From positions 1 through 13,929 of the IMG/VR virus record IMGVR_UViG_2713896908_000013: 13,929 nt of DNA; one strand, written 5' to 3'. Below are positions 3,975 through 6,538 of the stretch, in pieces (the first letter of the stretch is position 1; every line of letters begins with the position of its first letter). A program made the position numbers and the translations under genes. Below the pieces are notes generated by a model. That model did no database searches. It was not told the origin of the DNA and saw only the letters and a program-made list of their open reading frames with translations. This DNA comes from a virus. Its lineage: Duplodnaviria > Heunggongvirae > Uroviricota > Caudoviricetes.

Positions 3975-4925
3975 ATGCGGGCGAAACTTCTGGGAATAGT
4001 TCTGACAACCCCTATTGCGATCTGCTCTTTTGCCTCTACCGAGACTTTATCGTTTACACCTGACAACATAAATGCGGACATTAGTCTTGGAACTCTGAGC
4101 GGAAAAACAAAAGAGCGTGTTTATCTAGCCGAAGAAGGAGGCCGAAAAGTCAGTCAACTCGACTGGAAATTCAATAACGCTGCAATTATTAAAGGTGCAA
4201 TTAATTGGGATTTGATGCCCCAGATATCTATCGGGGCTGCTGGCTGGACTACTCTCGGCAGCCGGGGTGGTAATATGGTCGATCAGGACTGGATGGATTC
4301 CAGTAACCCCGGAACCTGGACGGATGAAAGCAAGCACCCTGATACAAAACTCAATTATGCCAACGAATTTGATCTGAATATCAAAGGATGGCTCCTCAAC
4401 GAACCCAATTACCGCCTGGGACTCATGGCCGGATATCAGGAAAGCCGTTATAGCTTTACAGCAAGAGGTGGTTCCTATATATACTCTGACGAGGGATTCA
4501 GAGATGATATCGGCACCATCCCGAATGGAGAAAGAGTAATAGGCTACAAACAACGTTTTAAAATGCCCTATATTGGCCTGACGGGAAGTTACCGTTATGA
4601 AGATTTTGAGTTCGGTGGAGCATTTAAATACAGCGGCTGGGTAGAAGCATCTGATAATGATGAACACTATGACCCGGGAAAAAGAATCACTTATCGCAAT
4701 AAGGTCAAAGACCCAAATTACTATTCTGTTGCCGTCAACGCAGGTTATTACGTAACACCTAATGTAAAAGTTTATGTTGAAGGAACATGGAATCGGGTTA
4801 CGAATAAAAAAGGTGATACGTCACTTTATGACCACAATGATAACACTTCTGACTACAACAAAAATGGTGCAGGCATAGAAAACTATAACTTCATCGCTAC
4901 TGCAGGTCTTAAGTACACCTTTTGA
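3975..4925 (+). CDS. ompT: Outer-membrane aspartyl protease, omptin family (OmpT)
   Basis: Translation from the ATG at 3975 (MRAKLLGIVLTTPIAICSFASTETLSFTPDNINADISLG...AGLKYTF) is near-identical along its length to E. coli OmpT as I recall it. GGAG at 3965-3968 sits 6 nt before the ATG. The ORF-track start at 3963 (METFM...) is rejected in favour of the SD-supported, homolog-aligned ATG. TGA at 4923-4925. Confidence 0.93.
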   Translation: MRAKLLGIVLTTPIAICSFASTETLSFTPDNINADISLGTLSGKTKERVYLAEEGGRKVSQLDWKFNNAAIIKGAINWDLMPQISIGAAGWTTLGSRGGNMVDQDWMDSSNPGTWTDESKHPDTKLNYANEFDLNIKGWLLNEPNYRLGLMAGYQESRYSFTARGGSYIYSDEGFRDDIGTIPNGERVIGYKQRFKMPYIGLTGSYRYEDFEFGGAFKYSGWVEASDNDEHYDPGKRITYRNKVKDPNYYSVAVNAGYYVTPNVKVYVEGTWNRVTNKKGDTSLYDHNDNTSDYNKNGAGIENYNFIATAGLKYTF

Positions 4926-5053
4926 CATCGTTAACTAAATTTTTTCCTCGGTGGTGATCTATAGCCCCGGGGAATTTATCTATCTTTCAAATTAAAGTTA
5001 CATAGTATTCAATATATTCTAAATTTATCTTCATACCGATATTCAGAGGCACA

Positions 5054-6538
5054 ATGCGAAAAATAATTACTCATTTCAAGATTGTTTTAACCTTACTTCT
5101 ACCCGTAACCGTATCTGCCCAGCAGATCGAGTGGCAATCCTGTATGACCAGTCAATTCAGCCACTGGTTTGGTGAGGAAAAACCCTCTCCTGACTTACTA
5201 TGTGGATATTTATCTGTCCCATTAAAATATACAGGCACAGGTGAAGACGGTCCTTCTGAAAAAAGACCACAAGTCAAACTGGCGCTGACAAAATTGCCGG
5301 CAAAAAGCAAGCATAAAGGAAGTATCCTGATAATAAGTGGTGGCCCCGGATTACCAGGCATAAATCCCTATATTAACTTTGACTGGCCAGTAACAAATCT
5401 TCGTGAGTCATGGGATATAATTGGTTTTGATCCTCGAGGCGTCGGACAGTCCACTCCTGCAATAAACTGCCAGCAATCAGATACAGAGATTCAGGAAAAC
5501 ATAACCGAAAAGCAACGAGTATTAAATAAAATTAATGCATGTATCCATAATACCGGAGCCGAAGTCATTCGCCATATCGGCTCTAATGAGGCTGTATATG
5601 ATATTGATCGTATTAGGCAAGCCTTGGGTGATAAACAACTGACAGCCGTGGCGTATTCGTATGGAACACAAATTGCAGCCTTATATGCAGAACGTTTTCC
5701 TTACAACGTCAGATCTATCGTTCTGGATGGAGTCGTCGATATAGATGACCTGGAAGACAACTTCACATGGCAACTCAAACAGGCACAGAGTTATCAGGAA
5801 ACATTTGATCGCTTTGCATCCTGGTGTGCGCGCACAAAAAGTTGCCCGCTTTCTTCAGACAGAGATAAGGCAATAACTCAGTTCCACGACCTGTTATTAA
5901 AATTGCATCACAGACCTTTAATCGACAGCAAGGGAGAAAATATATCTTCAGATGAACTCATATCATTAACAACAGACCTTCTGCTATGGCGTTCATCCTG
6001 GCCAACCCTTGCAACTGCCATACGCCAGTTCTCACAGGGGATTGTCAGTAATGAAATTGAAACTGCACTCAGTGCTCCAATAGCCTCAGAAGAGTCAAGC
6101 GATGCTTTGGGGGTAATCCTTTGTGTTGATCAGGGAGATGAGAAATTAACACCAGAAGAGAGAAAATCCCGAAAAGAGGCTCTTGCGAATGCCTTCCCAG
6201 CTATTAACTTTGACAATGGACGCTCTGATTCACCTGATTTTTGTGAATTGTGGCCAATACATAGCGACCTGAACAAAACTCGTCTGAAAAATACAGTTCT
6301 GCCCTCGGGTTTAATGTTTGTAGCACACAAATACGACCCAACAACGCCCTGGATTAATGCACGTAAGATGGCAGATAAATTTTCCAGCCCGTTGCTGACA
6401 ATAAATGGTGATGGACATACGTTAGCTCTTACCGGAACCAATTTATGTGTAGATAAAGCTGTTGTACATCATCTTCTTACTCCTCATAAAATAGAGGATA
6501 TAACCTGTCCGGGAAGTTCTGTAGTCGATACGCAATAG
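5054..6538 (+). CDS. Secreted alpha/beta-fold hydrolase, tripeptidyl-aminopeptidase-like (peptidase S33-type motifs)
   Basis: 494-aa ORF. N-terminal signal peptide (MRKIITHFKIVLTLLLPVTVSA, then QQ). SGGPG oxyanion-type motif, nucleophile-elbow-like AYSYGT, C-terminal GDGH. Ten Cys residues, consistent with periplasmic or secreted folding. AGAGG 4-5 nt before the ATG at 5054; TAG at 6536-6538. Confidence 0.75.
   Translation: MRKIITHFKIVLTLLLPVTVSAQQIEWQSCMTSQFSHWFGEEKPSPDLLCGYLSVPLKYTGTGEDGPSEKRPQVKLALTKLPAKSKHKGSILIISGGPGLPGINPYINFDWPVTNLRESWDIIGFDPRGVGQSTPAINCQQSDTEIQENITEKQRVLNKINACIHNTGAEVIRHIGSNEAVYDIDRIRQALGDKQLTAVAYSYGTQIAALYAERFPYNVRSIVLDGVVDIDDLEDNFTWQLKQAQSYQETFDRFASWCARTKSCPLSSDRDKAITQFHDLLLKLHHRPLIDSKGENISSDELISLTTDLLLWRSSWPTLATAIRQFSQGIVSNEIETALSAPIASEESSDALGVILCVDQGDEKLTPEERKSRKEALANAFPAINFDNGRSDSPDFCELWPIHSDLNKTRLKNTVLPSGLMFVAHKYDPTTPWINARKMADKFSSPLLTINGDGHTLALTGTNLCVDKAVVHHLLTPHKIEDITCPGSSVVDTQ

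Follow-up and report, generated by a model that had tools for sequence, protein, structure and literature searches.

What keeps a gene for a putatively exported serine hydrolase directly behind the outer-membrane protease gene ompT on mobile elements of Escherichia, and what might the two enzymes have to do with each other? The question is raised by positions 3975–6538 of a stretch of 13,929 nucleotides (IMG/VR virus record IMGVR_UViG_2713896908_000013, Caudoviricetes; 'the window' hereafter means the whole of this stretch), in which an earlier note, made from the letters alone, had recognized an omptin gene followed by a tripeptidyl aminopeptidase-like (TAP-like) hydrolase and had proposed a two-step proteolytic module. 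The answer considered here the most probable is that the two genes form a cargo ('moron') cassette, conserved among mobile elements of Escherichia and made of an omptin and a serine hydrolase of the TAP/Hip1 type that is predicted to be exported. This answer relies on the identities and family memberships of the two genes, on the conservation of the catalytic triad and cysteines of the hydrolase, on purifying selection, and on the synteny and distribution of the pair. The link between OmpT and the hydrolase is one of co-inheritance and probably of co-expression, and the two enzymes may in addition cooperate. That the pair is annotated and widespread and that the enzyme family is known is not new; the specific relationship to Hip1, a pairing that is both old and mobile (phage b-region, F plasmid) and the one-sided dependence within it are. 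The elements of the cassette are given below.

3909–3936, + strand: sigma-70-like promoter candidate TTGACT-16-AAAAAT (consensus match only)
3975–4925, + strand: ompT, outer-membrane aspartyl protease, 316 aa (Pfam Omptin, NCBIfam NF008222)
4926–5053, + strand: spacer between ompT and the hydrolase gene, 128 bp
4944–4974, + strand: G+C-rich hairpin, 19 nt past the ompT stop codon and followed by a moderately U-rich tract
5054–6538, + strand: alpha/beta hydrolase, predicted to be exported, of the TAP-like/Hip1 subfamily (MEROPS S33 type), 494 aa (Pfam PF00561 and PF08386)
5054–5119, + strand: predicted Sec signal peptide of the hydrolase, residues 1–22, cleavage after VSA
5657–5659, 6335–6337 and 6416–6418, + strand: catalytic codons of the hydrolase, Ser202, Asp428 and His455, respectively

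The first gene encodes a genuine member of the omptin family (PF01278; MEROPS A26), OmpT subfamily, as the earlier note had claimed. The protein matches the Pfam Omptin profile over 283 of its 283 positions (E=2e-129), scores 682.9 bits with NCBIfam NF008222 against a cut-off of 537, and aligns end to end with K-12 OmpT. The two pairs of residues established by structural work as catalytic in OmpT, namely D83/D85 and D210/H212 (K-12 mature numbering), are intact in a global alignment with the K-12 protein. The longest open reading frame (ORF) begins at 3963, but the start at 3975 is preferred on account of a GGAG at 3965–3968 and of all database annotations. The promoter candidate at 3909–3936 is the sole promoter-like site on the + strand ahead of the pair.

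The second gene encodes an S33 hydrolase of the TAP-like/Hip1 subfamily with a conserved Ser-Asp-His triad, an assignment based on profiles, alignments and a structural model. It matches Pfam Abhydrolase_1 (PF00561; E=1.3e-32, 113.8 bits for a cut-off of 25.8) and the TAP-like C-terminal domain PF08386 (E=1.6e-14, 54.3 bits for a cut-off of 21), and displays the motifs SGGPG (residues 95–99) and YSYGT (residues 201–205). The earlier assignment to alpha/beta hydrolases of the S33 or tripeptidyl aminopeptidase type, which had been drawn from SGGPG and SYGT, is thus supported by profiles as well as by motifs. The best sequence match in the PDB, by far, is the Mycobacterium tuberculosis protein Hip1/Rv2224c (E=5e-51, residues 21–475), with S202 (in AYSYGT), D428 and H455 aligned with Hip1 S228, D463 and H490. 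Among 47 homologues, with 29–93% identity to the query, S202, D428, H455 and T431 are invariant, and each of ten cysteines is present in at least 46 of the 47. An AlphaFold2 model built with these homologues (predicted local distance difference test score, pLDDT, 88; predicted template-modelling score, pTM, 0.89) places S202 at a nucleophile elbow between strand E196–201 and helix H203–214, D428 after strand E420–427 and H455 after strand E447–453, the last two core strands. These are the canonical positions of the triad for which the earlier note had proposed a profile search and a structure prediction as checks. In a Foldseek search with the model, six Hip1 entries come on top (template-modelling score, TM, 0.78–0.81), followed by TnmK1 and TnmK2, and other peptidase or hydrolase folds rank far below. 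TnmK1 and TnmK2 are presumably biosynthetic enzymes that act on small molecules and not proteases; their PDB labels give names alone, with one entry bound to TNM H. The SGGPG motif resembles the HGGPG motif of prolyl aminopeptidases, but an identity as such an enzyme was rejected, the scores with NCBIfam TIGR01249 and TIGR01250 being 36.2 bits for a cut-off of 259.75 and 18.9 bits for a cut-off of 167.65; these models, the sole NCBIfam matches of the protein, cover it around the nucleophile alone.

Hip1 is an immune-evasion protease of M. tuberculosis and a drug target, and its comparison with the hydrolase is instructive. The homology with this cell-envelope protein (Rv2224c, CaeA; PDB 5UGQ, 7SFM and 8E5W) extends over the full length at ~28% identity, and both enzymes have a threonine after the triad aspartate (T466 in Hip1, T431 here). 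Hip1 is exported and rich in disulfides, and the same is predicted for the hydrolase, with ten conserved cysteines here and 11 cysteines with 5 predicted disulfides in Hip1. Unlike Hip1, the hydrolase belongs to a Gram-negative host, has a predicted plain Sec signal peptide without a lipobox and is located on phages and plasmids beside an omptin. Hip1 is a serine protease with esterase activity, measured by hydrolysis of p-nitrophenyl butyrate, and its structure was first deposited as 'carboxylesterase A'; it cuts GroEL2, a mycobacterial surface and secreted protein, after Thr3, with release of a tripeptide, and after Arg12 (PMC4022732). By analogy, peptidase rather than esterase chemistry is likely for the hydrolase, but at ~28% identity the substrate specificity of Hip1 is not transferable. 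The view of the earlier note that the enzyme is an exopeptidase finishing OmpT fragments was conjecture, and is too narrow when set against Hip1, which is an esterase and endoprotease as well (PMC4022732). Hip1 is in turn 30–38% identical to the Streptomyces tripeptidyl peptidases (TPP) A, B and C (PMC4022732). In Streptomyces lividans these enzymes, Tap/TPP A, SlpD (TPP B) and SlpE (TPP C), are exported proteins of ~500 aa with the same PF00561 and PF08386 pair of domains. They are the basis of the 'tripeptidyl aminopeptidase-like' label; the likeness goes through the domains and through Hip1, with no solved structure of a Streptomyces enzyme among the PDB matches.

Export of the hydrolase was another claim of the earlier note, and a signal-like N-terminus, judged by eye, is indeed found. 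The sequence MRKIITHFKIVLTLLLPVTVSA, ahead of a predicted cleavage in front of QQ, combines three basic residues with a hydrophobic core (mean Kyte–Doolittle value 2.2), and a V-x-A precedes the predicted cleavage site. The F-plasmid orthologue has a different yet signal-like N-terminus, and the crystallized Hip1 construct aligns from residue 21 of the hydrolase on. The ten conserved cysteines imply folding in an oxidizing compartment. The predicted mature protein has 472 aa and 52.4 kDa and is acidic, with an isoelectric point (pI) of 5.4. From these features, a route through Sec to the periplasm appears likely.

Both genes appear functional and under purifying selection. The database holds thousands of near-identical members of both proteins, and this number, together with the strong family matches, indicates that both ORFs are real genes and not chance ORFs. 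The ratio of non-synonymous to synonymous substitutions (dN/dS) is 0.05–0.23 for the omptin and 0.11–0.17 for the hydrolase in most pairwise comparisons, while the closest pairs (synonymous divergence, dS, ~0.03) give 0.27–0.35. Between the OmpT-linked version and the version linked to OmpP, the omptin of the F plasmid, dS exceeds 1 for both genes with a dN/dS of 0.05–0.14, so that the pairing is of long standing and has stayed unbroken on mobile backbones of more than one kind.

The distribution of the pair was examined by megablast in 5426 complete E. coli genomes. The contiguous pair is present in 1220 of them, some match to ompT in 3135 and the hydrolase gene, at a coverage of at least 80%, in 1291. 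The linkage is asymmetric: ~97% of the chromosomal-type hydrolase genes are contiguous with ompT, and only ~39% of the ompT-positive genomes carry the hydrolase, with ~60%, K-12 included, being without it. Viral sequences give the same picture. In IMG/VR an omptin lies 184–186 bp upstream in 19 of 20 informative hydrolase contigs; in the exception (2609459833_000001, positions 1–790 of the extracted locus) a transposase gene of insertion sequence (IS) type is found ~90 bp upstream of the hydrolase start, with the hydrolase ORF intact. Among Escherichia phages, 11 records (e.g. Turner, 2G7b, ev243 and the PhiR series) include the hydrolase, and in the isolated phage 2G7b the order is int-[attP]-ompT-hydrolase-...-tail fibre. 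In lambdoid phages the cassette sits in the b-region by attP, which becomes the att-proximal end of the lysogen, beyond the tail-fibre genes. In PHROGs, both genes are in phage families of 'unknown function'.

Plasmids carry the cassette too. In the reference F plasmid (NC_002483.1, 32322–34861), ompP is followed by the hydrolase in the same gene order, on the same strand and with the same hairpin; the hydrolase is 77–79% identical and the omptin ~71% identical to those of the window. The F version differs in its position beside the RepFIB replicon and an integrase-family gene, and in having its own signal-peptide sequence. It is found in 156 PLSDB plasmids, and an IncF plasmid with colicin-immunity and iro genes bears the OmpT-type pair. 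Outside Escherichia, the closest homologues (52–54% identity) come from Budvicia and from a Salmonella contig with plasmid-type genes, and no omptin was seen within 6–7 kb of them. None was found beside the 80 more distant loci among the matches listed (mostly actinobacterial, three proteobacterial); Serratia, Pseudomonas, Moraxella and actinobacteria are among the sources of the homologues examined that have no omptin neighbour. The synteny for which the earlier note had proposed a survey is thus strong in Escherichia genomes, phages, IMG/VR contigs and the F plasmid, but does not extend to the non-Escherichia homologues examined.

While the pair is constant, its neighbours vary. They are cdtABC of type IV in the avian pathogenic E. 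coli (APEC) O1 strain and in an O84:H7 strain, a methyltransferase gene and tail-fibre-assembly remnants in O157:H7, and genes for NleG and an OspG/NleH-like kinase in E. albertii. The E. albertii chromosome CP117678.1 has two copies of the cassette, one at a nifJ-ompN-uspF site (L006) and one at an nfrBA-ybcH-envY site (L007), the latter being the location of DLP12 in K-12. As a side observation on these two copies, L007 is 100% identical to the window in the hydrolase gene and just 95.8% identical in the omptin gene, and L006 encodes the same hydrolase protein and an omptin protein with 99.4% identity. This mismatch is a sign of recombination, or of gene conversion, whose breakpoint lay between omptin and hydrolase genes.

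How the hydrolase gene is transcribed depends on the spacer. The gap of 128 bp between two genes on the same strand, reported in the earlier note, was confirmed by the coordinates, and compares with 184–186 bp in E. coli and 92–104 bp in the F plasmid. Alignment with the E. coli OmpT-type spacers (loci L001/L002, 9231–9416) reveals a deletion of ~56–58 bp in the window; the E. albertii spacer keeps the hairpin and the last ~50 bp ahead of the hydrolase start codon. The ribosome-binding site of the hydrolase is AGAGG at 5045–5049. The hairpin, with a stem of 8 plus 3 pairs, is kept in the window, in three E. coli types, in F ompP and in K-12. Its energy is −16.9 kcal/mol in the window; the hairpins of E. 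coli, of ompP on the F plasmid and of K-12 reach −20 to −22.5 kcal/mol, all these values being per-sequence folds, with K-12 offset by two columns in the automatic alignment and a different register of the inner stem in F. The outermost pair varies on both sides (U-A, C-G or A-U) with pairing preserved. In K-12 the homology to pair-bearing strains stops just past the hairpin and appY takes the place of the hydrolase gene; since the hairpin is present where the hydrolase is absent, it belongs to ompT. A terminator scan did not call it at 4944–4974, its loop being longer than 8 nt, and from its sequence it may be a leaky terminator or a 3′ stabilizer of ompT mRNA. No sigma-70-like promoter was detected in any of the spacers scanned (128 bp in the window, 184–186 bp in E. 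coli and 92 bp in F). At entry into stationary phase of O157 Sakai, ECs1662 (the hydrolase) and ECs1663 (ompT) decrease in parallel, by log2 −2.53 and −2.72, and belong to one expression cluster (PMC2241611), in agreement with co-transcription of the two genes.

The most likely way in which the cassette works is the following. At least part of the transcription of the hydrolase gene would begin at the ompT promoter and read through a probably leaky hairpin. OmpT, in the outer membrane, would cleave cationic peptides and proteins at the surface. The hydrolase would be exported by Sec, lose its signal peptide of 22 residues and form five disulfides in the periplasm; Ser202-Asp428-His455 would then attack peptide (and ester) bonds, either in the envelope or outside the cell once the enzyme has been released. 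Like Hip1, the hydrolase may take off N-terminal tripeptides and cut internally, and it may benefit from the promoter of OmpT, from its products, or from both.

Several points weigh against this picture of a co-expressed, exported peptidase. The cluster common to ECs1662 and ECs1663 is a large growth-phase cluster, and co-regulation within it is weak evidence. The conserved hairpin directly behind ompT could terminate efficiently, in which case the hydrolase would need its own, as yet unrecognized, promoter. Some annotations and a PHROG profile start the protein at Met31, with loss of the signal peptide, although diverged orthologues also have a signal-like N-terminus, which favours the start further upstream. 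Examples of the Met31 start are phage 2G7b (6091–7485 of the extracted locus) and phrog_20134, with products of 464 aa. Family membership does not fix the chemistry either, given that TnmK1 and TnmK2 have the same fold, and one phage record names the protein 'putative lactone hydrolase'. Finally, experimental work on this hydrolase was not found in the searchable literature.

A closer functional tie, as the earlier note had suggested, would be a dedicated two-step module in which OmpT cuts peptides or host proteins and the hydrolase trims the fragments as a tripeptidyl aminopeptidase, giving more resistance to antimicrobial peptides or more nutrient peptides than OmpT alone. OmpT is known to cleave cationic peptides and proteins at the cell surface, LPS-dependent cuts between basic residues being typical of its family, its products are rich in Arg and Lys, and the mature hydrolase is acidic (pI 5.4); Hip1, for its part, frees an N-terminal tripeptide and cleaves after Arg (PMC4022732). 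The rarity of Escherichia hydrolase genes without an omptin directly upstream, and a pairing that has outlasted both the divergence of OmpT and OmpP and the transfer between phages and plasmids with both genes under purifying selection, also speak for such a module. Other facts make it rather unlikely. In most strains OmpT does its work with no hydrolase present, the K-12 enzyme being fully active, which excludes an obligatory partnership, and the homologues examined outside Escherichia do without an omptin nearby. Moreover, OmpT acts outside and the hydrolase is predicted to be periplasmic, so that the outer membrane would stand between the fragments and the second enzyme, and they would need to pass it. 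The asymmetric linkage may come from a need for the ompT promoter, from a functional tie to what OmpT produces, or from shared descent, perhaps over a short history, in one cassette; the first or the last of these could by itself account for it. A wider version of the idea, that omptin and Hip1-like hydrolase form a mobile two-enzyme module for envelope proteolysis, disseminated by lambdoid phages and F-type plasmids, with an enrichment in Shiga toxin-producing E. coli (STEC) and E. albertii, is put forward with comparable reserve. If it were true, an exported S33 peptidase would complete the destruction of omptin-made cationic fragments or, in the manner of Hip1, process a bacterial or host protein, blunting innate immunity, and strains with both genes would measurably better withstand host defence peptides, or provoke less inflammation, than ompT-only strains.

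The reverse possibility is that the hydrolase has nothing to do with peptides and is instead an exported enzyme (an esterase, a lipase or a lactonase) with a lipid or a small molecule as its substrate, travelling with ompT as neighbouring cargo. Esterases and lipases are found among alpha/beta hydrolases with the same triad, TnmK1 and TnmK2 are presumably small-molecule enzymes of the same fold, and Hip1 itself was first called a carboxylesterase and hydrolyses p-nitrophenyl butyrate. Automatic names point the same way ('putative lactone hydrolase' in phage records, 'pimeloyl-ACP methyl ester carboxylesterase' in JGI homologues). Yet the best-scoring characterized relatives are peptidases (Hip1 and, via Hip1, Streptomyces TPP A/B/C), the TAP-like C-terminal domain PF08386 is present, and the only NCBIfam families matched, if far below cut-off, are prolyl aminopeptidases, with SGGPG close to their HGGPG motif; this makes a non-peptidase improbable, if still a serious rival. 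As for a decaying or silent passenger linked to ompT by an accident of recent common descent, the many ompT-positive genomes without the hydrolase and its lack of a recognizable promoter could be explained in this manner. Such a passenger is hardly conceivable, however, given a reading frame intact in the 8 of 8 versions compared, full-length matches that the genome entries listed describe as intact genes for alpha/beta hydrolases, the low dN/dS in most comparisons with triad and ten cysteines conserved, a pair kept across a dS above 1, and a transcript that is detected and regulated in O157 Sakai (PMC2241611). The conserved cargo cassette, with co-inheritance and probable co-expression of its genes, is thus the preferred interpretation.

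The pair had been encountered before under other names. In prophages of extraintestinal pathogenic E. coli (ExPEC) and APEC, rorf1 is 'a putative protease encoded in EDL933 prophage CP-933' and rorf2 an OmpT-like protease, beside cdt-IV, and ECs1662 of O157 Sakai is the 'putative protease' rorf1 (PMC4606577). The genes rorf1/rorf2 and ECs1662/ECs1663 represent the same cassette, with 93–95% protein identity; the window differs by its E. albertii host, its shorter spacer and its NleG neighbours in place of cdtABC or the ybcY methyltransferase. In a 2026 in-silico study, an alpha/beta hydrolase of 472 aa and ~52.19 kDa is proposed as a marker of STEC, being found in 81.6% of STEC versus 15.8% of non-STEC genomes and tied to OmpT by STRING (PMC12945212). 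It is very probably the same protein, as deduced from the 472 aa and 52.4 kDa of the predicted mature hydrolase and from cluster members of 472 aa. The accessible part of the study makes no mention of Hip1, of peptidase chemistry or of a prophage setting (PMC12945212). The description of the hydrolase as uncharacterized in the earlier note thus holds for experiments, but the pair itself had been noted, as rorf1/rorf2 (PMC4606577), and very probably the hydrolase as an STEC marker (PMC12945212). The arlABC locus (PI-6), on plasmids of adherent-invasive (AIEC) and uropathogenic (UPEC) E. coli, associates the omptin ArlC, which gives resistance to antimicrobial peptides, with accessory genes (PMC5053483). 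It was considered as the same module and rejected, ArlB being an NAD-dependent epimerase and neither partner of ArlC an alpha/beta hydrolase (PMC5053483). The hydrolase is unmentioned in the main text of an O157 proteome paper, and Z1931, reportedly present in supernatants of enterohaemorrhagic E. coli (EHEC), was set aside as a sign of hydrolase secretion, being by locus-tag order probably ompT itself.

The well-studied OmpT, of importance in virulence and biotechnology, is accompanied in roughly one complete E. coli genome out of four, and likewise in E. albertii and isolated temperate phages (with OmpP in its place on the F plasmid), by a hydrolase that is not known to have been characterized. 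Homology with Hip1 provides a testable biochemical hypothesis and ready assays (Hip1 substrates, probes and inhibitors). Should the enzyme help its host to resist peptides or to modulate immunity, phages would be carrying a new fitness factor; otherwise the gene is still of use as a marker and as a case of cargo genes in tight linkage.

As to its setting, the cassette lies in a lambdoid prophage of E. albertii, of which the window represents the att-proximal end. The exact OmpT and hydrolase proteins of the window are database entries of this species, which explains why the best E. coli DNA matches to the pair are just 91–95% identical. The other features of the window are as follows.

1–480, − strand: truncated NleG, ORF of 159 aa
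900–1535: further NleG gene of the left block
2004–2639, − strand: NleG type III effector, left flank of the pair (Pfam T3SS_NleG, E=8.9e-39)
2855–3085, + strand: integrase gene remnant, ~890 bp upstream of ompT
6765–7427, − strand: NleG type III effector, right flank of the pair (Pfam T3SS_NleG, E=1.2e-33)
7545–8126, − strand: tail-fibre assembly gene Tfa (Pfam Caudo_TAP)
8126–10882, − strand: tail fibre, 918 aa (Pfam phage_tail_N/Collar)
10941–11540, − strand: Lom (Pfam Ail_Lom)
11611–13908, − strand: C-terminal part of gpJ (Pfam Ig_J/Phage_Tail_Tip/Ig_GpJ_C domains)
7545–13908, − strand: the whole lambdoid tail module, which sets the prophage context

The earlier placement of the pair as prophage cargo in an AT-rich block between effector genes agrees with the NleG genes on its flanks and with the contrast in G+C, 0.39 in the cargo block (1–7500) and 0.54 in the phage tail genes. 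For the NleG gene on the right flank, related loci annotate a product of 208 aa from an internal start. On the left, positions 2861–3975 share 96% identity with the sequence that precedes ompT in APEC O1 and the O84:H7 strain, where a partial tyrosine recombinase (integrase) is annotated at the matching position. The position of this int remnant upstream of ompT parallels the int-[attP]-ompT order of phage 2G7b, and suggests another element, or a rearranged one, as the source of the NleG genes further to the left.

Rfam and tRNA scans found nothing relevant to the ompT–hydrolase pair. Some minor features of the window may be recorded. The 159-aa NleG remnant shows, from residue 20 on, 37% identity with the first 139 residues of the NleG encoded at 900–1535, ends just ahead of the U-box domain and has no Pfam NleG match; an identical 159-aa product is annotated in other E. 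albertii genomes. Some E. albertii relatives encode a macro-domain protein of 300 aa (PF01661; 13082–13984, − strand, in loci L004/L005) between the tail fibre and Tfa genes, which is missing in the window. Within the 3′ part of the Tfa gene, a match to Rfam IS009 (7585–7783, − strand) covers the entire model length with 169.5 bits for a gathering threshold of 117. The tail-fibre gene includes, at ~9250–10600 (− strand), a long Ala/Ser/Thr-rich tract of low complexity, with a G+C of ~0.6 and an AT skew of ~−0.38, which opens spurious ORFs in several frames (372, 255 and 249 aa).

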